A stretch of 64,000 bases of DNA from Escherichia coli (lineage in GTDB: Bacteria > Pseudomonadota > Gammaproteobacteria > Enterobacterales > Enterobacteriaceae), in NCBI RefSeq assembly GCF_016903815.1, contig NZ_CP069973.1. One strand, 5' to 3'. Made by a program: the position numbers and the translations under genes. The stretch's first letter is position 1. Each line of letters begins with the position of its first letter. The notes under the pieces are model-generated. The model was not told the origin of the DNA, searched no databases, and saw nothing but the letters and a program-made list of their open reading frames with translations. This document shows, in pieces, positions 8,077 to 51,139 of the stretch.

Positions 8077-9735
8077 ATGATTCTTGAGCGCGTTGAAATT
8101 GTGGGTTTTCGCGGTATCAACCGTTTGTCGTTGATGCTGGAACAAAACAACGTCCTGATTGGGGAGAACGCGTGGGGTAAATCCAGCTTGCTGGACGCCT
8201 TAACCCTGCTGCTATCGCCAGAATTAGATCTCTACCATTTTGAGCGCGACGATTTCTGGTTCCCGCCGGGAGATATCAACGGGCGAGAACATCATCTGCA
8301 TATTATTTTGACCTTCCGCGAATCGCTGCCAGGCCGACATCGGGTTCGCCGCTATCGGCCGCTGGAAGCGTGCTGGACGCCATGCACCGATGGCTATCAC
8401 CGTATTTTTTATCGTCTGGAAGGGGAGAGTGCGGAAGACGGCAGCGTGATGACACTGCGCAGTTTTCTCGATAAAGACGGACATCCGATTGATGTCGAGG
8501 ATATTAACGATCAGGCACGCCATCTGGTGCGTTTAATGCCGGTGCTGCGCTTGCGTGATGCCCGTTTTATGCGCCGTATTCGTAACGGCACGGTGCCAAA
8601 TGTCCCCAATGTGGAAGTCACCGCGCGCCAGCTCGATTTCCTCGCCCGTGAGTTGTCCTCACATCCGCAAAATCTCTCTGATGGACAGATTCGTCAGGGA
8701 CTTTCCGCAATGGTACAGCTGCTTGAGCATTATTTCTCTGAGCAGGGGGCCGGACAGGCGCGATATCGTTTAATGCGGCGGCGAGCCAGCAATGAGCAAC
8801 GAAGCTGGCGCTATCTGGATATCATCAACCGGATGATTGACCGACCAGGAGGGCGCTCGTATCGGGTTATTTTGCTCGGCCTGTTTGCTACTTTGTTGCA
8901 GGCAAAAGGCACATTGCGACTGGATAAAGACGCCCGTCCATTGTTGCTGATCGAAGATCCAGAAACCCGTTTACACCCCATTATGCTTTCAGTTGCCTGG
9001 CATCTGTTGAATCTTCTGCCATTGCAGCGCATTGCCACCACCAACTCTGGCGAGCTGCTTTCGTTAACGCCGGTAGAACATGTTTGCCGACTGGTACGTG
9101 AGTCCTCGCGCGTTGCCGCCTGGCGTCTGGGGCCGAGTGGTTTGAGTACCGAAGACAGCCGACGCATCTCTTTCCACATTCGTTTTAATCGTCCGTCATC
9201 GCTGTTTGCACGCTGCTGGCTGCTGGTGGAAGGCGAAACGGAAACCTGGGTTATCAATGAACTGGCGCGTCAGTGCGGACATCATTTTGATGCCGAAGGG
9301 ATCAAGGTCATTGAGTTTGCCCAGTCCGGGCTAAAGCCACTGGTTAAATTTGCCCGGCGAATGGGGATTGAATGGCATGTACTGGTCGATGGCGATGAGG
9401 CAGGGAAGAAATATGCCGCTACGGTACGCAGCCTGTTGAATAACGATCGGGAAGCCGAACGAGAACATTTAACGGCGTTACCGGCGCTGGATATGGAACA
9501 TTTTATGTATCGCCAGGGATTTTCCGATGTGTTCCACCGCGTGGCGCAAATCCCGGAAAATGTACCGATGAATCTGCGCAAAATTATCTCGAAAGCGATC
9601 CATCGCTCTTCCAAACCCGATCTTGCCATTGAAGTGGCAATGGAGGCAGGACGTCGTGGTGTGGATTCCGTACCGACGCTGCTGAAAAAAATGTTCTCAC
9701 GCGTGCTGTGGCTGGCGCGCGGTCGCGCGGATTAA
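8077..9735 (+). CDS. ybjD: OLD-family ATP-dependent endonuclease (AAA ATPase + Toprim), core-genome YbjD
   Basis: 552-aa ORF; N-terminal Walker A (GENAWGKSSLLDA); C-terminal Toprim-like region; synteny. Confidence 0.9.
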   Translation: MILERVEIVGFRGINRLSLMLEQNNVLIGENAWGKSSLLDALTLLLSPELDLYHFERDDFWFPPGDINGREHHLHIILTFRESLPGRHRVRRYRPLEACWTPCTDGYHRIFYRLEGESAEDGSVMTLRSFLDKDGHPIDVEDINDQARHLVRLMPVLRLRDARFMRRIRNGTVPNVPNVEVTARQLDFLARELSSHPQNLSDGQIRQGLSAMVQLLEHYFSEQGAGQARYRLMRRRASNEQRSWRYLDIINRMIDRPGGRSYRVILLGLFATLLQAKGTLRLDKDARPLLLIEDPETRLHPIMLSVAWHLLNLLPLQRIATTNSGELLSLTPVEHVCRLVRESSRVAAWRLGPSGLSTEDSRRISFHIRFNRPSSLFARCWLLVEGETETWVINELARQCGHHFDAEGIKVIEFAQSGLKPLVKFARRMGIEWHVLVDGDEAGKKYAATVRSLLNNDREAEREHLTALPALDMEHFMYRQGFSDVFHRVAQIPENVPMNLRKIISKAIHRSSKPDLAIEVAMEAGRRGVDSVPTLLKKMFSRVLWLARGRAD

Positions 9736-10724
9736 CCGCGAAACATCGTGGCCATTTGTGGCTGAATAGCGTCGAGCATCTCATAGCGCCGACGGTATTC
9801 AGCCCGTTTTTTACTGGCGATTTCGGCAATCTCTTTTCGTGCTATCTGTGCCGGAAGGCGGTAATGGCGTTCAGCATCACATACGCCGCCTACCGACTCC
9901 CAGAACGCGTTGTAATCAGCATGGATCTTGCCTTCTTTATCGCGATAACGCAGGCTGCGGTAAATATGTGTTTCATTGCTGACGGCAATGATCTGCTCTA
10001 CCTGCAAACGTTGGGCAAACAGACAGGCCGCTTCCATCACAAGGCGTTTGGGAAATAGCCCGTGGCAGGCTTTCGTCGCATTCTGGATTTCCTGATGTGG
10101 AATTTCCCATTTTGCGCCTTGCAGTCCGCCAATAAACATTGTTCTTTCCCCCTGATATTCACACAGGGTAAACGTGATCTCTGCCAGAGGAATACCTTCG
10201 CTGTTGCGGAACAGGATTGTGCTGTCACCTTCTTTATCCATTGAGATCATCATGGTCAGCTCAAGTGTGAACTGCTCGCCGTTTTTGCCTTCCAGCTTCG
10301 CCAGTTGCAGCCCGGGGGTATTCAAATATAAGCTGAATTCTTCCGCCGACATACATCCGCGGAGTAACGCATAATGGTAACGTAACGCCTCCAGCAATTG
10401 CTTACGGCTAAGATTCGCCGCAAGGTAAGGGCGATGCAGACGCACAGGCAGTCGCGGCTGGCGCGTTAACAACACATTGAGATTAGGCCAGTGGGAAAGT
10501 TCGTTCATCCACTCAACGCTTAAACGCGGCATAATCAACGAGCGCAGCAAAAATTTCTGGCGAAAACTACGGCGATGCCAGAATTTACCCGGCCGACACT
10601 GTCCACGTGCCAGACTAAGAAAAAGTGACAGGCTGCTGAGAGATTCAGATGGCGTAAAGGTCCGTTCAGTTAGCTGCGACATATTCATGAAATCAATGGT
10701 TATACATGACGTCGATTTCACCAT
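9732..10724 (-). CDS. ybjX: DUF535/VirK-family protein YbjX
   Basis: 330-aa ORF convergent with ybjD (4-bp overlap); synteny; start codon not resolved between the MVKST and MNMSQ candidates. Confidence 0.8.
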   Translation of the reverse strand: MVKSTSCITIDFMNMSQLTERTFTPSESLSSLSLFLSLARGQCRPGKFWHRRSFRQKFLLRSLIMPRLSVEWMNELSHWPNLNVLLTRQPRLPVRLHRPYLAANLSRKQLLEALRYHYALLRGCMSAEEFSLYLNTPGLQLAKLEGKNGEQFTLELTMMISMDKEGDSTILFRNSEGIPLAEITFTLCEYQGERTMFIGGLQGAKWEIPHQEIQNATKACHGLFPKRLVMEAACLFAQRLQVEQIIAVSNETHIYRSLRYRDKEGKIHADYNAFWESVGGVCDAERHYRLPAQIARKEIAEIASKKRAEYRRRYEMLDAIQPQMATMFRG

Positions 10725-37775: not shown

Positions 37776-38089
37776 CCTCTTCTCCTTTCGAGAGTCAGTG
37801 GTACGTCTGAAATCGGTCAGACGCGATGCATTGCTCTGAAAGCATAGACGGGAAATATGAGTTTGCTGTGACCATGAAATTTTTCGACTGAACGAAGCGT
37901 ATGAAATTTGTATTAGATCAATAAAAACAATCAGATGAGATTAATCGTCTCTCCAGCATTAGCGTTATGAATGAGTAATATAAATCGATAATACCTCCGC
38001 TGCGATATGCGCGTATTTTCACCCATTGACAATGTTTTTGGCGGTGGCATGATGCGCATGAAATTTGAACTTCCTCACGGTTTTAATTC

Positions 38090-39238
38090 ATGTCCACGTA
38101 TACCCGGCCTGTCATGCTTTTGCTGTCTGGCCTGCTTTTGTTGACTCTGGCGATCGCAGTGTTAAATACACTCGTACCGCTTTGGCTCGCCCAGGAACAC
38201 ATGTCCACATGGCAGGTAGGCGTTGTCAGCTCATCCTATTTTACCGGCAACCTGGTCGGTACATTGCTGACAGGGTATGTCATTAAGCGCATTGGCTTTA
38301 ACCGCAGCTATTATCTGGCCTCCTTCATTTTTGCCGCTGGCTGTGCCGGCCTTGGTCTAATGATTGGATTCTGGAGCTGGTTGGCTTGGCGTTTTGTCGC
38401 CGGCGTCGGCTGTGCCATGATTTGGGTGGTTGTTGAGAGCGCGCTGATGTGCAGTGGGACGTCACGTAACCGTGGGCGTTTGCTTGCTGCGTATATGATG
38501 GTTTATTACGTGGGAACGTTTTTAGGCCAGTTACTGGTCAGCAAAGTTTCAACCGAGCTGATGTCCGTATTGCCGTGGGTTACAGGTTTGACGTTGGCAG
38601 GGATCTTACCGTTGTTGTTTACGCGTGTGCTGAATCAGCAGGCTGAAAACCATGATGCGACGTCAATTACGTCAATGCTAAAACTCCGTCAGGCGCGGCT
38701 TGGCGTGAATGGCTGCATTATCTCAGGAATCGTTCTGGGATCTCTATATGGCCTGATGCCGCTGTACCTCAATCACAAAGGGGTGAGCAATGCCAGCATT
38801 GGTTTCTGGATGGCGGTACTGGTCAGTGCGGGTATCCTTGGACAATGGCCGATTGGACGTCTGGCGGATAAGTTTGGTCGACTGCTGGTGTTGCGTGTTC
38901 AGGTCTTTGTCGTCATTCTCGGCAGTATCGCGATGCTTAGCCAGGCGGCGATGGCCCCAGCGTTATTCATCCTCGGTGCCGCTGGCTTTACGCTATATCC
39001 GGTGGCGATGGCATGGGCTTGCGAGAAAGTTGAACATCATCAACTGGTGGCGATGAACCAGGCCTTACTGTTGAGCTATACCGTGGGAAGTCTGCTTGGC
39101 CCGTCATTTACTGCCATGCTAATGCAGAATTTCTCCGATAATTTATTGTTTATCATGATCGCCAGCGTATCGTTTATCTATTTGCTGATGCTGCTTCGCA
39201 ACGCCGGTCATACGCCGAAACCCGTTGCTCACGTGTAA
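38090..39238 (+). CDS. ycaD: MFS transporter YcaD
   Basis: 382-aa polytopic membrane protein; synteny. Confidence 0.9.
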
Positions 39239-39447
39239 ATGAATTCAAGCAGAGTGTGAACTTACTGTTTCACACTCTGCTTTTTTGTTTCTTCTATCTG
39301 ACTTGCTTTATTCCAAATTTTATTCGTTTAAAAATAAAATGTGCAGCAGATTATAATTTTGCATTTCGCTATTTCCGCACTTCTTATTTGCCGCGCATAA
39401 TCCCTCGTTTTACAGATGCCCCTTTAATTTTGGCGAAGGATTTGTCT

Positions 39448-40878
39448 ATGGCTGGGAATGTTCAGGAAAAACAGCTGCGATGGTACAACATTGCGCTGAT
39501 GTCTTTTATCACTGTCTGGGGTTTTGGCAACGTTGTTAATAACTACGCCAACCAGGGGCTGGTGGTTGTTTTTTCATGGGTGTTTATCTTTGCGCTCTAT
39601 TTCACACCTTATGCGCTAATTGTTGGTCAGTTAGGCTCGACCTTCAAAGATGGGAAGGGCGGGGTCAGTACCTGGATTAAACACACGATGGGACCCGGAC
39701 TGGCTTACCTCGCCGCGTGGACCTACTGGGTAGTGCATATTCCCTATCTGGCACAAAAACCCCAGGCAATACTGATTGCGCTCGGTTGGGCGATGAAAGG
39801 CGACGGTTCGTTAATCAAAGAATATTCAGTCGTAGCGTTACAGGGGTTAACGCTGGTGCTGTTTATCTTCTTTATGTGGGTTGCTTCACGCGGTATGAAA
39901 TCGCTGAAAATCGTCGGTTCTGTGGCAGGGATTGCGATGTTTGTTATGTCGCTCCTGTATGTGGCGATGGCGGTAACCGCGCCTGCAATTACTGAAGTGC
40001 ATATTGCGACCACAAACATTACCTGGGAAACGTTCATTCCTCATATCGACTTTACCTACATTACCACTATTTCAATGCTGGTTTTCGCGGTTGGCGGAGC
40101 AGAGAAGATTTCTCCTTACGTTAATCAAACGCGCAACCCAGGAAAAGAATTTCCAAAAGGGATGTTATGCCTGGCGGTGATGGTTGCGGTTTGTGCCATT
40201 CTGGGCTCACTGGCGATGGGGATGATGTTTGACTCGCGTAATATCCCGGATGACTTAATGACTAACGGTCAGTATTACGCCTTTCAGAAGCTGGGCGAGT
40301 ATTACAACATGGGTAATACTTTAATGGTGATTTATGCCATTGCGAATACCCTGGGACAAGTAGCTGCGCTGGTATTCTCGATTGATGCGCCGCTTAAAGT
40401 GTTATTAGGCGATGCTGACAGCAAATATATTCCAGCCAGTTTATGTCGTACCAACGCTTCTGGTACGCCCGTTAATGGCTATTTTCTGACCCTGGTGCTG
40501 GTGGCGATTCTGATAATGCTACCGACTCTCGGCATTGGTGATATGAACAATCTCTATAAATGGCTGTTGAACCTTAATTCGGTAGTGATGCCGCTGCGTT
40601 ATTTATGGGTATTTGTTGCATTTATTGCAGTCGTTCGCCTGGCGCAGAAATATAAACCAGAATATGTCTTTATTCGTAATAAGCCGCTGGCAATGACCGT
40701 CGGAATTTGGTGTTTTGCCTTTACCGCTTTTGCCTGCCTGACTGGTATTTTCCCGAAAATGGAAGCCTTCACCGCAGAGTGGACATTCCAGTTGGCGCTG
40801 AATGTTGCAACGCCGTTTGTGCTGGTAGGATTAGGGCTGATATTCCCGCTGCTGGCGCGTAAAGCGAATGGTAAATAA
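39448..40878 (+). CDS. ycaM: APC-family amino acid transporter YcaM
   Basis: ~476 aa from MAGNVQEKQLRWYNIALMSF inside the longer six-frame ORF; polytopic. Confidence 0.85.
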   Translation: MAGNVQEKQLRWYNIALMSFITVWGFGNVVNNYANQGLVVVFSWVFIFALYFTPYALIVGQLGSTFKDGKGGVSTWIKHTMGPGLAYLAAWTYWVVHIPYLAQKPQAILIALGWAMKGDGSLIKEYSVVALQGLTLVLFIFFMWVASRGMKSLKIVGSVAGIAMFVMSLLYVAMAVTAPAITEVHIATTNITWETFIPHIDFTYITTISMLVFAVGGAEKISPYVNQTRNPGKEFPKGMLCLAVMVAVCAILGSLAMGMMFDSRNIPDDLMTNGQYYAFQKLGEYYNMGNTLMVIYAIANTLGQVAALVFSIDAPLKVLLGDADSKYIPASLCRTNASGTPVNGYFLTLVLVAILIMLPTLGIGDMNNLYKWLLNLNSVVMPLRYLWVFVAFIAVVRLAQKYKPEYVFIRNKPLAMTVGIWCFAFTAFACLTGIFPKMEAFTAEWTFQLALNVATPFVLVGLGLIFPLLARKANGK

Positions 40879-41044
40879 TTATTGTGGTCGGTGACGCTGA
40901 CTCTGGCAGATCTGACCCGTTTTTACATAATCGAGAAATGCGCGTAAGCCGCAGGACATATACTGGCGGTTTGGGTAATACATTTGGAAGCTGTGCTGTA
41001 AGGGCGTTAGAAATAGAGCTCTGAATTATTTATGCAGAGCGGAA

Positions 41045-41080
41045 TAAAAAAGCGGCAACTCAAAAAAGTTGCCGCTTTAC
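41045..41080. terminator. bidirectional terminator between ycaM and pflA
   Basis: aaaaaagcggcaactcaaaaaagttgccgcttta: hairpin with A/T runs on both sides. Confidence 0.6.
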
Positions 41081-41087
41081 GGGGAAA

Positions 41088-41885
41088 TTAGAACATTACC
41101 TTATGACCGTACTGCTCAAGAATGCCTTTCACGCGTTCCATGGTCTCTTTCTTCGGTGGTTTAACACCATCAAGTTTGTATTCTTCACCCATCGCCACCC
41201 ATTTGTGTTTGCCAAGTTCGTGGTAGGGGAGAAGCTCGATTTTCTCAACGTTGCCCATATCACGGGTAAATTCACCGAGGCGATGCGCTGAATCGTCATC
41301 GTCAGACCAGCCTGGGACAACAACGTAGCGGATCCACACCTTCACATTTTTGTTCGCCAGATATTTGGCGAACTCCAGCGTGCGGTGGTTTGAAACTCCA
41401 ACCAGATTTTGGTGGATCTCGTCGTTCATCTGTTTGAGATCGAGCATTACCAGGTCGGTTACTTCCAGCAGTTCATCAATCACCGGATCGTAACGACGAA
41501 CAAAACCGTTGGTGTCCAGACAGGTATGAATGCCTTCTTTTTTGCAGGCGCGGAACCAGTCACGAACAAACTCAGCTTGCAGGATTGCTTCACCGCCGGA
41601 TGCGGTAACGCCGCCGCCGGAAGCGTTCATAAAGTGGCGATAGGTCACCACCTCTTTCATTAAATCTTCAACGGTAACTTCTTTACCGCCATGCGTGTCC
41701 CAGGTGTCGCGGTTATGACAATACAGGCAGCGCATCAGGCAGCCCTGGAAAAAGGTGATAAAGCGAATACCCGGGCCGTCTACGGTTCCACAGGATTCAA
41801 AGGAGTGAATGCGACCAATAACTGACTTGGTAGCCCCCGCCGCAGCGGTATTTTCTGTTGTATTACAATTAGTTAAATTACTCAT
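41088..41885 (-). CDS. pflA: pyruvate formate-lyase activating enzyme (radical SAM); the 5' end is unusual, the canonical [10 protein letters not shown]-terminus is preceded by Lys (AAG) and the only in-frame ATG is 19 codons upstream at 41885
   Basis: Radical-SAM CxxxCxxC ([10 protein letters not shown]) and a PflA match from residue 20 of the ORF; conserved core 41088-41828. Confidence 0.9.
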
Positions 41886-41916
41886 ATCGCTTCAATTGGC
41901 TCTAGTTAACTCTGGT

Positions 41917-42912
41917 TTATGGACGCATTATGGACATTCCTGACACCGGGTTAAGAGTCACAGCATCTTGTAAGAAATCCGGTGCAAAGTGTGCGTAGGT
42001 CATAGTTTGCTGAATGTTAGAATGACCCAGGATGCGCTGCAATGTGATTATGTTACCTCCATTCATTATAAAATGTGTGGCAAATGTATGCCTCAAAACA
42101 TGCACTGCCTGTCCGTCAGGTAAATCGGGTTTTACTTCCCTGAGAGCGTTGCGCACTTTGTAGTAACTGGCATTAAAAAGCCTGCCTGAATTTTTGGTCT
42201 TGATCCGTTTAATCAGGTCCTGCGAAACGGGAATTGTCCTGCGCTTTCCGTTTTTAGTTTTCATAAACGTAACCATCTGGTTAATGATGTGTTCAGCTTT
42301 CAAATTAGACACTTCACTCCAGCGTCCACCAGTAGAAAGGCAGACCAGAGTTGCATTTAACTCATCACCATCAAGCATGGATAACAGCCGCGTAATCTCT
42401 TCACTGGACAAAAAAGCCATTTCCGTAACAGCTTCACGTAACCGCTTAACCTCACGGAACGGGTTGTGAGAGTGATATTCACCGGCGTCAATTAACTTGG
42501 TGAACATCCCGCTCATTATTGCCAGATGCCGATTTACGCTGGCTGGTTTTAGGCCATCGTTCATCATTACAACGCGATAATCAGTTATCGTTTTCTTTGT
42601 TAGCTGGTCCGCCCTGGACACTCCCATCTCGGCAAATTTGGCGATTATTGTCGTCAAACGCCCTCGTTCAATATCTCCACGCTCATGTGATTTTCCGTGA
42701 TATATCCACCATCTGCCTAACAACTCTGTAAGAGTTCGGCGGTCGGCCGGCTTCTCCAACCACTCTTTGTTGTGGTAGTTAACCAGGACATGACGTTCGA
42801 ATGCTTGAGCTTCACCTTTAGTTTTAAATTTCCGCCTGATACGTTTTCCATCTGCACCCTGCGGTCTGACGTCCACTTCATAACGACCATCATCGAGCTT
42901 TTTAATAGACAT
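41917..42912 (-). CDS. int: phage tyrosine integrase (P2-family)
   Basis: 331 aa MSIKKLDDGRYEVDVRPQGADGKRIRRKF; C-terminal catalytic region with HxxR (VLRHTFATH) and terminal Tyr (TMTYAHF). Confidence 0.92.
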   Translation of the reverse strand: MSIKKLDDGRYEVDVRPQGADGKRIRRKFKTKGEAQAFERHVLVNYHNKEWLEKPADRRTLTELLGRWWIYHGKSHERGDIERGRLTTIIAKFAEMGVSRADQLTKKTITDYRVVMMNDGLKPASVNRHLAIMSGMFTKLIDAGEYHSHNPFREVKRLREAVTEMAFLSSEEITRLLSMLDGDELNATLVCLSTGGRWSEVSNLKAEHIINQMVTFMKTKNGKRRTIPVSQDLIKRIKTKNSGRLFNASYYKVRNALREVKPDLPDGQAVHVLRHTFATHFIMNGGNIITLQRILGHSNIQQTMTYAHFAPDFLQDAVTLNPVSGMSIMRP

Positions 42913-43005
42913 AAAGCCCTCCGATGACGCTGTTTACTTCTACTACTTGAAAATTAATGCAATTTTCTTTCGTACATTTACTGCACACATATGCTGAATA
43001 AATCG

Positions 43006-43317
43006 TCAGCCAGTCTTTTGGTCTGAGTGGTGCAAGGTTGTTGAGTCTTGCCCAATGTGCGCGAGCGCCGGGGCTATTTGTCCGCCAGCGGGATCAGTTT
43101 CATCAAACATGAACCAGTCACGGTACTTGCGAAATCTTTCTGGCTTGAAAAATTTCATACCTGCGTCAAAAGACATCTTTACTTTTCCCTGCTCATATCC
43201 AGCATAGGTGTTGTAGTTAATTCCAGTTAATTCAGCAACTTGCTTCCTTGTCATTCTTTCTGATTCCCGAATAAGTGCGAGTTTCTCTGCTTGAGATGTG
43301 ATTTGTGTATTTGACAT
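43006..43317 (-). CDS. C: P2 C-type immunity repressor
   Basis: 103 aa from MSNTQITSQAEKLALIRESERMTRKQVAELTGINYNTYAGYEQGK; C-terminal ...GQIAPALAHIGQD...SDQKTG resembles P2 C; divergent from cox. Confidence 0.85.
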   Translation of the reverse strand: MSNTQITSQAEKLALIRESERMTRKQVAELTGINYNTYAGYEQGKVKMSFDAGMKFFKPERFRKYRDWFMFDETDPAGGQIAPALAHIGQDSTTLHHSDQKTG

Positions 43318-43421
43318 GAATTGTCGTATCTCGTAATTTATGTTGTATGCGACACGCCAGAACAACGCAGAGCGGCTTCAAATAGCTCTGATTGAATGGC
43401 ACCAAAGTTGAGGATATCAAA
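43318..43421. promoter_or_regulatory. C/cox divergent immunity-switch region (expected Pc/Pe promoters and operators)
   Basis: Intergenic region between divergently oriented repressor and cox-like genes, as in the P2 lysis-lysogeny switch. Confidence 0.45.
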
Positions 43422-43778
43422 ATGAGTATTGGATCAGAAATGAATAACGATGTTGGAGAAAAAGTATCTGATCTCACAAAAAGTAAAAAATGTGACATCA
43501 AACTTGCAGCCGCACCGTCGGATTTGCTCTCGAAAGAGGGTTTTGCTCTTTACATCGGTAAGACGCCTCGTGCTGTTGCTGAAATGGCGAAAGCAGGCAA
43601 GTTACCAGCCTTTTATATGACGGACCCATTAAAGCCGGGCGGTCATGCTGAGTTATGGATTAATCGTCGTGAGTGGGACAAGTACGCAGCCCAGCTAGTT
43701 GATGAAGCTCCGACAGAATGGCATGACTGGAAAAATCGCATTAGTTACAGCAAATCAAGACATGGCCGTGCGGCTTAA
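43422..43778 (+). CDS. cox: Cox/Apl-like excisionase and early-operon regulator
   Basis: ORF starting MSIGSEMNNDV with a GAGGA RBS; HTH-like region FALYIGKTPRAVAEMAKAGKLPAFY; first gene of the early operon. Confidence 0.7.
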   Translation: MSIGSEMNNDVGEKVSDLTKSKKCDIKLAAAPSDLLSKEGFALYIGKTPRAVAEMAKAGKLPAFYMTDPLKPGGHAELWINRREWDKYAAQLVDEAPTEWHDWKNRISYSKSRHGRAA

Positions 43779-43788
43779 GGTGGAAAGG

Positions 43789-43959
43789 ATGAACGAGCCT
43801 CGTTGTATTGCTCAGTTATTGCGTAACGAAAGCCCCAGGGCGATTGACTTCACCATCACGCACGGGAAGGGGCGCAAGGGAATCATTATCCGTACCAAAA
43901 AACAGAGTCCGTTAAAAAAGGCTCTGACCTTTCTGAAAAGCCGGAGGGTCTGGAAATGA
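43789..43959 (+). CDS. small early protein (P2 orf78 position)
   Basis: 56-codon ORF MNEPRCIAQLLRNESPRAIDFTITHGKGRKG between cox and B; start uncertain. Confidence 0.45.
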   Translation: MNEPRCIAQLLRNESPRAIDFTITHGKGRKGIIIRTKKQSPLKKALTFLKSRRVWK

Positions 43960-44456
43960 CAGTGATGACGCTTAATCTCGTCGAAAAACAGCCAGCAGCT
44001 ATGCGCCGGATAATTGGTAAGCATCTTGCCGTCCCTCGCTGGCAGGAGACATGCGATTATTATAATCAGATGATGGAACGCGAACGGCTAACGGTTTGCT
44101 TCCATGCGCAGTTAAAACAGCGTCACGCAACGATGCGTTTTGAAGAAATGAATGATGTCGAACGTGAACGACTGGTATGTGCAATTGATGAATTGCGTGG
44201 GGCATTCTCAAAACGCCGTCAGGTTGGCGCAAGTGAGTATGCATATATTAGTTTTTTAACAGTCAGTCAGCGTCGTACTTTATTTATGCATGCCGGATTG
44301 ACTGAAAAAGAATTCAACCAGCCATACTGGCGAATTAATGAAGAATCATGTTACTGGCGTGATGCTTTATTCCGTGCATTACGTGAATTATTCAGCCTGT
44401 TTGAGTATGCACCGACAATTCTGACGTCGGTAAAACCAGAGCAATATCTGCATTAA
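43956..44456 (+). CDS. B: P2 replication protein B (DnaB helicase loader-like)
   Basis: 166 aa MTVMTLNLVEKQPAAMRRIIGKHLAVPRWQETCDYYNQMMERERLTVCF, matching P2 gpB. Confidence 0.9.
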   Translation: MTVMTLNLVEKQPAAMRRIIGKHLAVPRWQETCDYYNQMMERERLTVCFHAQLKQRHATMRFEEMNDVERERLVCAIDELRGAFSKRRQVGASEYAYISFLTVSQRRTLFMHAGLTEKEFNQPYWRINEESCYWRDALFRALRELFSLFEYAPTILTSVKPEQYLH

Positions 44457-44520
44457 GTAATTAACCAGAGTTTTTAACGCACTTAATTGTGCGGGGGCTT
44501 CTTTTTGCCTGGAGAAAGTC

Positions 44521-48429: not shown

Positions 48430-48750
48430 ATGTTACACAGAGCCCTTCGTTTAATAAGGCAATACCATAAAGAGTCATTGGTTGATTTATCAACATCTTT
48501 AGGTATTCCAAAAGAAAAAATAGTAGAACTCGAAAGTGGGGTTTGGTCGCCTACAATTGATGTTTTACAGCGTTACGCCTCCCATTTCGATATGCCGGTA
48601 TCTTCTTTAGTATTTTTTTCAGAATCGTTAGGTACGCAGGGGCGTTTATCTAAGCGTTTCCGTTTAAATTTAGCTGGTAAAGTATTAGATGTTATTGAGT
48701 GGGCGAATAAGAAAAATGAAAAGACGAATAAAACTCAAAATTTCCACTAA
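48430..48750 (+). CDS. XRE/Cro-type helix-turn-helix protein, putative partner of the RT
   Basis: 106 aa from MLHRALRLIRQYHKESLVDLSTSLGIPKEKIVELESGVWSPTIDVLQRYASHFDMPVSSLVFF (HTH_XRE-like pattern); GGAG RBS; 3' end overlaps the RT start. Confidence 0.6.
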   Translation: MLHRALRLIRQYHKESLVDLSTSLGIPKEKIVELESGVWSPTIDVLQRYASHFDMPVSSLVFFSESLGTQGRLSKRFRLNLAGKVLDVIEWANKKNEKTNKTQNFH

Positions 48751-49666
48751 AAATAAATCTTACGATATAATTGATTCGCCGTTTTATAAAATGAGAAGTA
48801 AAAGGAAATTGGCTTCTTTATTGGGGGTTGATGTAGGGGATTTATCAACCTTAAAAAAAGATGAAGGCAATTATTCTATTTTTGAACAGTTATCTAAAAA
48901 CGGAAAGCCACGTAAGATACAAAAACCATTAGAAAAATTAGATGTGGTGCATACTCGTATTGCAAGTCTGCTATCGCGAATTACTTTGCCAGATTATCTA
49001 CATTCTGGAAAGAAGGGATGTTCTAATGTTACTAATGCTAAAATCCACCTTAATAATGAAAGGTTGATGACAACCGACATCAGGGCTTTTTTTCCATCAA
49101 CTACCAGAGAAATGATATTTTCATTCTTTTTTTCTGTTATGAAGATGTCATCTGATGTTGCGGATGTATTATCGTATATATGTACTTGCTATGGGCGTTT
49201 GCCTACAGGTAGCAGGATTAGTATGCCTCTTGCATATTTTGCAAATTCCAGAATGTTCGGAGAAATACACCAACTTTGTAATAAACTACACGTAAATATG
49301 TCTGTTTATGTTGATGATCTAACTTTTTCAGGACAAAACGTTAATAGACTATTTTGTTCAGTGATTCGCAAAATAATAAATAAGCATGGTCATGTGATGC
49401 ATGCGGATAAAACAAAAATTTATAGTAGAGAAAAGCCTAAGTTGGTAACAGGTGTTATTGTTTTGGGCGGTTCTTTAAAAGTCAGGAATAAGCAGCATCT
49501 TTTAATGTCTCAAGAAATTGAATATTGGAAAATGATAAAGGATGCAGCGTGTGCAAGAGAAACTCATACTGCCAAAAAGTTATTTGGACGATTGCATTCT
49601 ATGGGGGTAATTGAACAACGTTATAGATCAAAGGTGCTTACATTAAAAGCAAGTACTGCACTTTAA
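48716..49666 (+). CDS. retron-type reverse transcriptase
   Basis: RT motifs visible: DIRAFFPS (motif A), YVDDLTFSG (motif C), retron-typical NAxxH (NAKIH) and VTG (KLVTGVIVLGG); ~316 aa; start codon uncertain (48689, 48716 or 48791). Confidence 0.8.
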   Translation: MKRRIKLKISTKNKSYDIIDSPFYKMRSKRKLASLLGVDVGDLSTLKKDEGNYSIFEQLSKNGKPRKIQKPLEKLDVVHTRIASLLSRITLPDYLHSGKKGCSNVTNAKIHLNNERLMTTDIRAFFPSTTREMIFSFFFSVMKMSSDVADVLSYICTCYGRLPTGSRISMPLAYFANSRMFGEIHQLCNKLHVNMSVYVDDLTFSGQNVNRLFCSVIRKIINKHGHVMHADKTKIYSREKPKLVTGVIVLGGSLKVRNKQHLLMSQEIEYWKMIKDAACARETHTAKKLFGRLHSMGVIEQRYRSKVLTLKASTAL

Positions 49667-49774: not shown

Positions 49775-51139
49775 CTAATTTTTTAATGTGTATTTTTCTG
49801 TGATTAGTTTCATTGTTCTTTCCAATCCTAAATATACAGTGGCATCAGTAATATTGAGCACGGCAAGTTCTTTTAAAATTTTCTTTTTGTCTCTGATGTT
49901 TATTTTTTCTGTCTTAAAATTGTATGGTGAATTATCTGCCTGATCGTTGGATATCTCAGGAAAAACGGCGTTATTACCGAATAATAAAAAGGCACCGGAT
50001 TGAGATGATATTCTTTCATTATTTATTCTGCTTTTTACAAAAATTATTTTTTCCAAATCCTCTGGATTTATTATGCTTTTAAAATATGGTTTTTCATGCT
50101 TTATGGATTCTAAGAGTTTAAGGCAAGCATGAGAGCTGTTAAAATCATTATTTCTTTCTTCGAAAGAAAGCTTGTCTTTCATGTCTTTTGATAGCATGCA
50201 TAAATTAGATATGCAACTGACAGTGTCGGAATCGAAAAATTTAATGTTCTCTCTGTGTGTTTTAAATATTATTACTTGACCATCGATATCGTTTTTGTCG
50301 GAATTTATACTACTGCATGCAAAATAAAGTGCAATTAATGGATTTGATGTGATGTCAAGTAAGCGAGTAGGTATGCCATAATGTTGCATTCTTACAAGTT
50401 TATCAAGCATTGATGTATCATCAATGAATTCTGAGGGTCTTGCGCTCAATGCTTCTTTAACAAGGTTGATTTCATTATGTAGAAATTTATAGTTCCCATT
50501 TTCATATTTTCTGAAAAGAGATGGTGCAAGTTCATAAGATGAATCTGAATGACCCCTGTAAAAAATCTCCTCATCCATATCTGCTGTTATATGGAGAACT
50601 TTTTCAATAAATTCTTGTAAACTATTTACGGTTAATAATGTGCTATCTTCGTCTGGGAGAGGCGCTGGACTGCTATCCACTTGTGCATTTTGGTTAATAC
50701 CAAATGTCTTAAGGATATCATCTATATTTTTGTCTTTTATGGCCCAGTGTGTTCTTTTAAGGCCATAAGTTCCGAGTTCTAAACTGCTTTCAACACTTTT
50801 GGCGTCTGATATTTTGATTTCATTGTGTGTATGGGTGATTGCAAATTGGAAGTTGATTTCTTTTCCCTTAATGTGAATATTTGAAATTCTTCCAATTCGT
50901 ATGTCGACATAATAAGGTTTTGCTCCCTCTATTTGATAAGCTTCACTCATGAATATTGTTGGGAGTTTTTCAAGATAAGATAGTACATTACTGCTTAATG
51001 GGGATAGTTTTTTACGAATACCATCGGAGGTGTTTTCAAACATTCGTGATAAAAGAAATGAGAATTCTCCATTATTTTGGCTGAATGGTTTCCAGTGGTC
51101 GTAGTGGTCGGGAAAACCACCCATAATTAAATTAATCAT
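49775..51139 (-). CDS. FRG-domain-like protein (C-terminal FRG-type motifs, uncharacterised N-terminal domain); candidate defense gene
   Basis: 454-aa AT-rich ORF convergent with the RT; motifs FYRGHSDSSYELAPSLFR and RMQHYGIPTRLLDITSNPLIALYFA. Confidence 0.6.
   Translation of the reverse strand: MINLIMGGFPDHYDHWKPFSQNNGEFSFLLSRMFENTSDGIRKKLSPLSSNVLSYLEKLPTIFMSEAYQIEGAKPYYVDIRIGRISNIHIKGKEINFQFAITHTHNEIKISDAKSVESSLELGTYGLKRTHWAIKDKNIDDILKTFGINQNAQVDSSPAPLPDEDSTLLTVNSLQEFIEKVLHITADMDEEIFYRGHSDSSYELAPSLFRKYENGNYKFLHNEINLVKEALSARPSEFIDDTSMLDKLVRMQHYGIPTRLLDITSNPLIALYFACSSINSDKNDIDGQVIIFKTHRENIKFFDSDTVSCISNLCMLSKDMKDKLSFEERNNDFNSSHACLKLLESIKHEKPYFKSIINPEDLEKIIFVKSRINNERISSQSGAFLLFGNNAVFPEISNDQADNSPYNFKTEKINIRDKKKILKELAVLNITDATVYLGLERTMKLITEKYTLKN

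Follow-up and report, generated by a model that had tools for sequence, protein, structure and literature searches.

In the genome of Escherichia coli K-12 MG1655, the permease gene ycaM (b0899) is separated from pflA (b0902, minus strand) by two genes, ycaN (b0900, minus strand) and ycaK (b0901, plus strand), and the distance from ycaM to pflA is 1,680 bp. In the 64,000-nucleotide stretch of E. coli DNA analyzed here (the window), the same two flanking genes are exactly 209 bp apart (40879–41087), and pflA is bordered on its far side by a P2-like prophage. The locus therefore raises the question of what the short spacer consists of, whether ycaN and ycaK were ever part of it, and whether the neighboring prophage is involved in their absence. 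The initial annotation, made from the sequence alone, had given the gene order of K-12 correctly, had reported both genes missing from a gap of about 210 bp, and had proposed either a deletion or a lineage that never possessed the pair. As detailed below, the first of these alternatives is borne out by 3' remnants of both genes within the gap. We are highly confident that the spacer is the inert scar of an old, lineage-wide deletion of approximately 1.5 kb, that the pair was lost independently several times, this deletion being one case, and that the prophage is unrelated to it.

The RefSeq annotation of E. coli strain 7/2 (NZ_CP023820.1) was transferred onto the window and used alongside a listing of its open reading frames (Table 1). 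Positions 38000–44500 of the window match the strain 7/2 chromosome with 100 per cent identity, as they do many further finished genomes. Both genes that flank the spacer are preserved. The ycaM gene ends with a TAA codon at 40876–40878, and its product contains the Pfam domain AA_permease_2 and has 99.8 per cent protein identity to YcaM of K-12. The pflA stop codon is located at 41088–41090 on the minus strand, and residues 2–246 of PflA are 100 per cent identical to those of the K-12 protein.

Table 1. Features of the ycaM–pflA spacer and its surroundings, in window coordinates.
Feature	Position	Strand	Remark
ycaM, intact APC-family amino-acid permease gene, 476 aa	39448–40878	+	left flank of the scar
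ycaN 3' remnant (LysR-type regulator), codons ~266–302 and stop	40879–40990	-	112 bp
ycaK last codons and stop, plus ycaK–pflA spacer, diverged haplotype	40991–41038	+	from alignment with other Escherichia
pflA terminator region	41039–41087		48/49 identical to K-12
pflA intrinsic terminator hairpin, 13-bp stem, 6 GC pairs	41049–41078	-	same element as in K-12
pflA, intact from codon 2	41088–41885 (native part 41088–41825)	-	right flank of the scar
13-bp att core of the P2-like prophage, ACCAATAACTGAC	41814–41826	.	nt 3–15 of the pflA coding sequence
P2-like (Peduovirus) tyrosine integrase gene, first prophage gene	41917–42912	-	PGAP 'phage integrase'

When YcaN and YcaK of K-12 were compared with the 64-kb window by tblastn, the sole match was a C-terminal YcaN fragment of 36 residues at 40882–40989, which corresponds to K-12 residues 267–302 and is identical to them at 35 of 36 positions (97 per cent). 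At the nucleotide level, the remnant matches the 3' end of K-12 ycaN at 108 of 112 positions, and, as in K-12, it directly abuts the ycaM stop codon and runs on the opposite strand. RefSeq carries a pseudogene at 40879–40989, described by PGAP as 'incomplete; missing N-terminus', in strain 7/2 and O157:H7 alike. A functional LysR-type regulator requires an HTH_1 domain and a full LysR_substrate domain (residues 7–63 and 91–290, respectively, of K-12 YcaN), of which only residues ~266–302 are left here. Judged by its sequence, the segment at 40879–40990 is the tail of a genuine domain-bearing gene, now a pseudogene remnant, and chance similarity is excluded.

The 48 bp that follow (40991–41038) are 98 per cent identical to O157:H7, 72 per cent identical to E. 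albertii, and only 56 per cent identical to K-12. Traces of ycaK that are recognizable by alignment are confined to ~11 bp around its stop codon (TGTGCTGTAAG in the window, matching TGCACTATAAG in K-12). YcaK gave no tblastn match anywhere in the window and none in the spacer even at E ≤ 1, and a Flavodoxin_2 reading frame was not found between the ycaN remnant and pflA. Positions 40992–41031, with only scattered chance matches to K-12, had been considered as non-homologous filler; this reading was dropped, as the spacers of other Escherichia show the ycaK stop region.

The window and K-12 were compared by blastn and by a custom pairwise alignment. Homology extends from ycaD through ycaM to position 40991 of the window, restarts at 41032–41039, and continues through pflA, with the deletion junction at 40990/40991 (±2 bp). 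Bases 8774–10284 of the K-12 locus (L002) have no megablast counterpart in the window. Relative to K-12, ~1,476 bp are missing, and the spacer is shorter by a net 1,471 bp. The missing DNA is made up of 797 bp of ycaN (88 per cent of the gene), 99 bp of divergent promoter region, and 580 bp of ycaK (98 per cent of the gene). The deletion size of ~1.7 kb originally estimated is thus too large: the actual figure is ~1.48 kb, and 1.68 kb is the length of the full K-12 spacer. The junction contains neither an IS element or IS end nor any att-like or phage sequence, and the whole spacer is explained by ycaN, ycaK and terminator sequence. The corresponding breakpoint positions in K-12 (GGAAGC/CTGGAC and GGTAGA/TGCACT, with the slash at the break) have no visible stretch of at least 2 bp in common, with the proviso that K-12 may differ from the true progenitor haplotype. 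A scan of positions 40500–42000 against Rfam returned only a sub-threshold chance match to L20_leader (21 bits; gathering score, 58.7).

The pflA terminator hairpin, with the arms GCGGCAAC...GTTGCCGC, takes up 30 of the 209 bp of the spacer, the remainder of which is gene remnant. Folding energies of -20.3 kcal/mol (z = -5.9) and -19.0 kcal/mol (z = -4.6) were calculated for its minus and plus strands, respectively. In the minus-strand orientation, the hairpin is followed by the U-tract UUUUUUAUU (tail TTTTTTATT in the terminator scan), so that the G+C-rich hairpin and U-tract of an intrinsic terminator are both present on the pflA strand. The tail on the plus strand is only UUUA (UUUACGGGG), and the terminator scan calls the minus strand alone. 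The spacer had been described as holding a single bidirectional terminator hairpin; the hairpin is real and is a minus-strand terminator, but a proper U-tract and a scan call exist in the pflA orientation only, and 'bidirectional' is therefore only half borne out.

In K-12, ycaM and ycaN are convergent, their stop codons adjoin without a single intervening base, and no terminator separates the two genes (8660/8661 in L002; 40878/40879 in the window). Given the zero gap and the lack of a terminator, transcription of ycaM must enter ycaN in K-12, and the ycaN remnant in the window, in the antisense direction. After the deletion, ycaM and pflA would be convergent neighbors that share the pflA hairpin; transcription from ycaM would now run ~170 bp into this hairpin, where it may putatively stop, and no longer antisense into a full ycaN.

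How widespread the arrangement is was assessed in 5,426 complete E. coli genomes. The window-type junction, searched for with a probe of 311 bp across the scar junction of which at least 80 per cent had to be matched, was detected in 1,021 genomes (~19 per cent), including O157:H7 strains. A probe composed of the diverged 48 bp and the terminator also recovered 1,021 genomes, and the equality of the two counts indicates that, in E. coli, the diverged haplotype is found only with the deletion junction. The scar is thus not strain-specific, being replicated over all of these genomes. The intact ycaN–ycaK pair, searched for with a probe that excluded the retained 3' end, is present at a coverage of at least 80 per cent in 3,317 genomes (61 per cent; 3,341 with any match), with K-12, BW25113, J53 and O104:H4 among the carriers. 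In a third state, found in 1,047 genomes, including Nissle 1917, 83972, SF-173 and E302, ycaD is directly followed by pflA, and ycaM, ycaN and ycaK are all absent. Together, the three states account for 5,385–5,409 genomes, and among the rest are variants disrupted or deleted by IS elements, for example CUPS04. The initial annotation had allowed that ycaM and pflA might be adjacent in most strains; adjacency turns out to be a minority arrangement, and the intact pair that of the majority.

In the junction search, the number of matched places exceeds the number of genomes by 3,341 (8,756 - 5,415), which is also the number of genomes with any ycaN/ycaK match. Because these two numbers are the same, the split junction and the presence of the genes coincide, and the complementary counts argue that genomes with an unsplit junction do not carry ycaN and ycaK elsewhere. 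None of the 5,426 genomes combines intact genes with a ycaK 3' end of the window type, and the collection thus contains no intact progenitor allele. The ycaD–pflA allele is a separate, larger deletion, equivalent to positions 39289–41045 of the window; in E302 (L004, 5944–6045), its 96-bp spacer consists of the ycaD hairpin and the pflA terminator. The loss in CUPS04 is independent and IS1-mediated, with a different junction of its own, at which IS1 is flanked by a truncated ycaM on one side and the final 66 bp of ycaK on the other, and ycaN is gone (L047, 1675–3067).

To place these losses in time, we turn to the relatives of E. coli. A search for YcaM in GTDB species representatives yielded 41 loci. 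In 22 of them, from Citrobacter, Salmonella, Kluyvera, Yokenella, Pluralibacter and their relatives, ycaD–ycaM is followed by pflA. The spacers between ycaM and pflA at these non-Escherichia loci either measure 49–950 bp (~50 bp in Citrobacter) or hold unrelated inserts of 4.8–5.8 kb, and no trace of YcaN or YcaK was detected at the 22 loci even at E ≤ 1. The expectation that Salmonella carries ycaN and ycaK was refuted by the loci of S. enterica arizonae and diarizonae, which have neither gene. The four Escherichia representatives that lack the genes, on the other hand, all keep YcaN remnants, at three different junctions. Since remnants occur in every Escherichia lineage examined and in none of the other genera, the pair appears to have been gained on the Escherichia stem and repeatedly lost. 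Most likely, there was a single gain of ycaN–ycaK between ycaM and pflA on that stem, and the simplest history then involves at least five independent losses within Escherichia.

The YcaM search also brought up several unrelated observations. The large inserts between ycaM and pflA, which have no relation to ycaN or ycaK, are those of Citrobacter werkmanii, Citrobacter sp. Cu233, Kluyvera genomosp. 3 and K. georgiana (L010, L012, L032 and L041), and they make the ycaM–pflA gap a recurrent insertion point in several genera. A 396-bp contig assigned to Corallococcus aberystwythensis (L045, NZ_RAWK01000613.1, coverage 0.67) has 99 per cent protein identity to E. coli YcaM and is almost certainly assembly contamination. 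Relatives of YcaM with 62–66 per cent identity are present in anaerobic Firmicutes (Clostridium, Pelosinus, Anaerospora and Sporomusaceae; L034–L040), far closer than vertical descent predicts, and this similarity hints at a transfer of the permease gene between phyla.

The age of the scar is less straightforward, because its two sides carry different signals. The ycaN remnant is 96 per cent identical to K-12 and 76 per cent identical to E. albertii; for the flanking genes, the corresponding values are 98 per cent and 85–92 per cent. Three of the four mismatches between the remnant and K-12 lie within its last 16 bp. Identity to K-12 drops from 96–99 per cent on the left of the junction to the 56 per cent of the 48 bp on its right, which resemble E. 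albertii. These figures conflict, and a simple vertical history therefore cannot explain both sides. The pattern, which involves tens of bases only, suggests either that the scar allele is old and its left side was homogenized by recombination within E. coli or that the intact allele of strains of the K-12 type was re-imported. A tentative reading, to which we give some weight, is that the scar is a very old allele that predates the split of E. coli and E. albertii, in the form of a trans-species presence/absence polymorphism or with the intact pair regained by lineages of the K-12 type through homologous recombination with another Escherichia lineage. If this is true, the abrupt step in divergence at the junction would mark the recombination history of the locus. 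Our literature search found no paper on strain variation in ycaN and ycaK.

Alternatively, the identical junctions of E. coli and E. albertii could be independent events at a deletion hotspot instead of one inherited allele. Consistent with this explanation, the repeated losses of ycaN–ycaK in Escherichia mark the locus as deletion-prone, and the closer match of the window's ycaN remnant to K-12 than to E. albertii is expected if the E. coli deletion postdates the species split. However, the scars of the window and of E. albertii agree not only in their breakpoints but also in the diverged haplotype to the right, and the K-12 positions show no repeat or microhomology by which the same deletion could arise repeatedly. 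We consider such a coincidence unlikely, and independent identical deletions are less likely than one inherited allele, under which the scar would have a single origin.

Much less probable is the proposal that the lineage never had ycaN and ycaK, so that the short spacer is ancestral and strains of the K-12 type gained the genes by insertion. Outside Escherichia, ycaM does adjoin pflA, across spacers of 49–160 bp and without a trace of either gene, which implies that the pair was inserted at some earlier time, and in a published survey (PMC9068703) E. coli K-12 and Shigella boydii alone showed the ycaN–ycaK–ycaM cluster. Yet the spacer of the window holds the end of the ycaN frame and the ycaK stop region, and an insertion cannot create genes whose 3' ends already sat in the empty site. 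Moreover, Escherichia spacers measure ~210–240 bp, as opposed to ~50 bp in Citrobacter. The second alternative of the initial annotation is thereby excluded for this lineage, though it holds for the neighboring genera, and the earlier insertion most likely belongs to the Escherichia stem.

A role of the P2-like prophage, through imprecise excision or a rearrangement associated with its integration, had been hinted at because of the location of the scar, and we regard it as highly improbable. The prophage is indeed close: it lies directly upstream of pflA, with its start ~740 bp away from the scar. However, its att core is located at the far (5') end of pflA, ~730 bp from the scar and ~820 bp from the deletion junction, and the pflA sequence between them is intact from codon 2. 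The core 13-mer is also present at the far end of the prophage next to pflB in strain 7/2 and is single-copy in uninterrupted genomes. The prophage junction occurs in 404 of the 5,426 genomes, and scar and prophage occur together in 299, far fewer than the 1,021 that have the scar. O157:H7 TW14359 has the identical scar beside an uninterrupted pflA–pflB region, and E302 has a prophage at the pflA site together with the different, ycaD–pflA deletion. A prophage-associated deletion would place an endpoint at att or show strict co-occurrence with the prophage, and neither was observed. The scar without the prophage, the prophage with another deletion, and the two unequal counts together establish that scar and prophage are independent of each other. 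The P2-like prophage of E. coli HS (PMC3448106), which we checked as a possible case of insertion beside an intact ycaN–ycaK pair, sits at rcdA/ybjL and not at pflA. Finally, an assembly or sequencing artifact, such as a collapsed or mis-joined region, can be dismissed as practically inconceivable, because the junction is identical or nearly identical base for base in 1,021 independently finished genomes.

The prophage insertion merits a description of its own and is probably more interesting than the scar. It lies inside the first codons of pflA and converts the native ATG to AAG. The phage arm supplies a new ATG (41883–41885) and 20 codons, which results in the 265-aa PflA annotated by PGAP. 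The insertion leaves the native pflA promoter, ribosome-binding site and first five codons beside pflB, over 33 kb from the rest of the gene, where the reading frame is MSVIGDIF followed by a stop codon (L048, ~12381). Because int is transcribed toward pflA, expression of pflA in lysogens may depend on phage signals. The integrase gene has 98–100 per cent nucleotide identity to those of the free phages S164, vB_YpM_46, pro147 and others, and the same integrase and arm are carried by phages S164 (100 per cent) and vB_YpM_46, pro147 and pro483 (~98 per cent). The type strain of E. albertii has the same prophage insertion at pflA. Our literature search found no paper that names pflA as an att site of P2-like phages. 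As cargo, the prophage carries genes for an HTH protein and a reverse-transcriptase family protein beside an opposite-strand gene for an FRG-domain protein (48716–49666, plus strand; 49775–51139, minus strand). In strain 7/2, a gene of the Shedu immune nuclease family is situated between the tail-fiber assembly and tail-sheath genes (NZ_CP023820.1, 1023150–1024376, outside the window). These genes look like anti-phage defense cargo in P2 hotspots.

Under the deletion-scar explanation that we favor, the ancestor would have had the arrangement ycaM > < ycaN ycaK > < pflA, from which one event of illegitimate recombination, presumably independent of repeats, would have removed the ~1,476 bp. With them went the 5' part of ycaN, the promoter region from which the two genes diverge, and the whole of ycaK but for roughly its final three codons. 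What is left is the 3' end of ycaN, deprived of its promoter, start codon and DNA-binding domain, and then the ycaK stop region and the unchanged pflA terminator. This junction and its haplotype are fixed in the scar-bearing fifth or so of complete E. coli genomes, O157:H7 included, and are present in the type strain of E. albertii as well. The resulting cell would lack both the LysR-type regulator YcaN and YcaK, a putative NAD(P)H oxidoreductase with a Flavodoxin_2 fold (Pfam). The scar itself is without plausible function and is presumably selectively neutral. Variation in the gene content of the locus is already known, and the pseudogene is already annotated in RefSeq.

The broader meaning of the scar concerns the genes that it replaced. 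Both of these, ycaN and ycaK, belong to the accessory genome of E. coli and have no established function. In K-12, a ycaN mutant showed altered expression of ycaC, ycaD and focA and a formate-utilization phenotype (PMC9068703). Because ~39 per cent of complete genomes are without ycaN and ycaK, models of regulation by YcaN are not transferable to O157:H7, to strains of the Nissle 1917 and 83972 type, or to the lineage of the window, and the gene order of K-12 is not the species norm at this locus. The three states of the locus (intact pair, ycaN remnant scar, and ycaD–pflA) could serve as a simple lineage marker.

Compared with K-12 MG1655, the window has ycaD, ycaM and pflA flanks with 98–99 per cent nucleotide identity and a nearly identical terminator region and ycaN 3' end, and it differs by the absence of the deleted segment and by the divergence of the bases that follow the junction. 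The closest resemblance is to O157:H7 TW14359, which has the 209-bp spacer with the same junction, remnants identical at 111 of 112 and 47 of 48 positions, and the same pseudogene annotation (ECSP_RS31820). In that strain, however, there is no prophage at pflA, which keeps its native start codon and promoter. Nissle 1917, 83972 and E302, known as strains of phylogroup B2, have also lost ycaN and ycaK, by a deletion that ends just before the same pflA terminator; unlike the window, they have lost ycaM too, have 96 bp between ycaD and pflA, and retain no ycaN remnant. E. albertii NBRC 107761, Escherichia sp. E1V33, Escherichia sp. MOD1-EC7003 and 'E. coli' SCPM-O-B-8794 resemble the window in having remnants of the ycaN 3' end and the ycaK stop region within spacers of 206–237 bp. 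Among them, E1V33 and SCPM-O-B-8794 have one common junction of their own (...GGGTAATAGGTT/GATGCACTATAA..., with the slash at the junction); the junction of MOD1-EC7003 is different again and leaves more of YcaN in place (52 aa). In E. albertii NBRC 107761, the junction lies at the same positions as in the window on either side, and the haplotype to its right is also that of the window (TGTGCTrTAAG...CTGAATTATTTATG), as distinct from the type found in K-12, L006 and L007.
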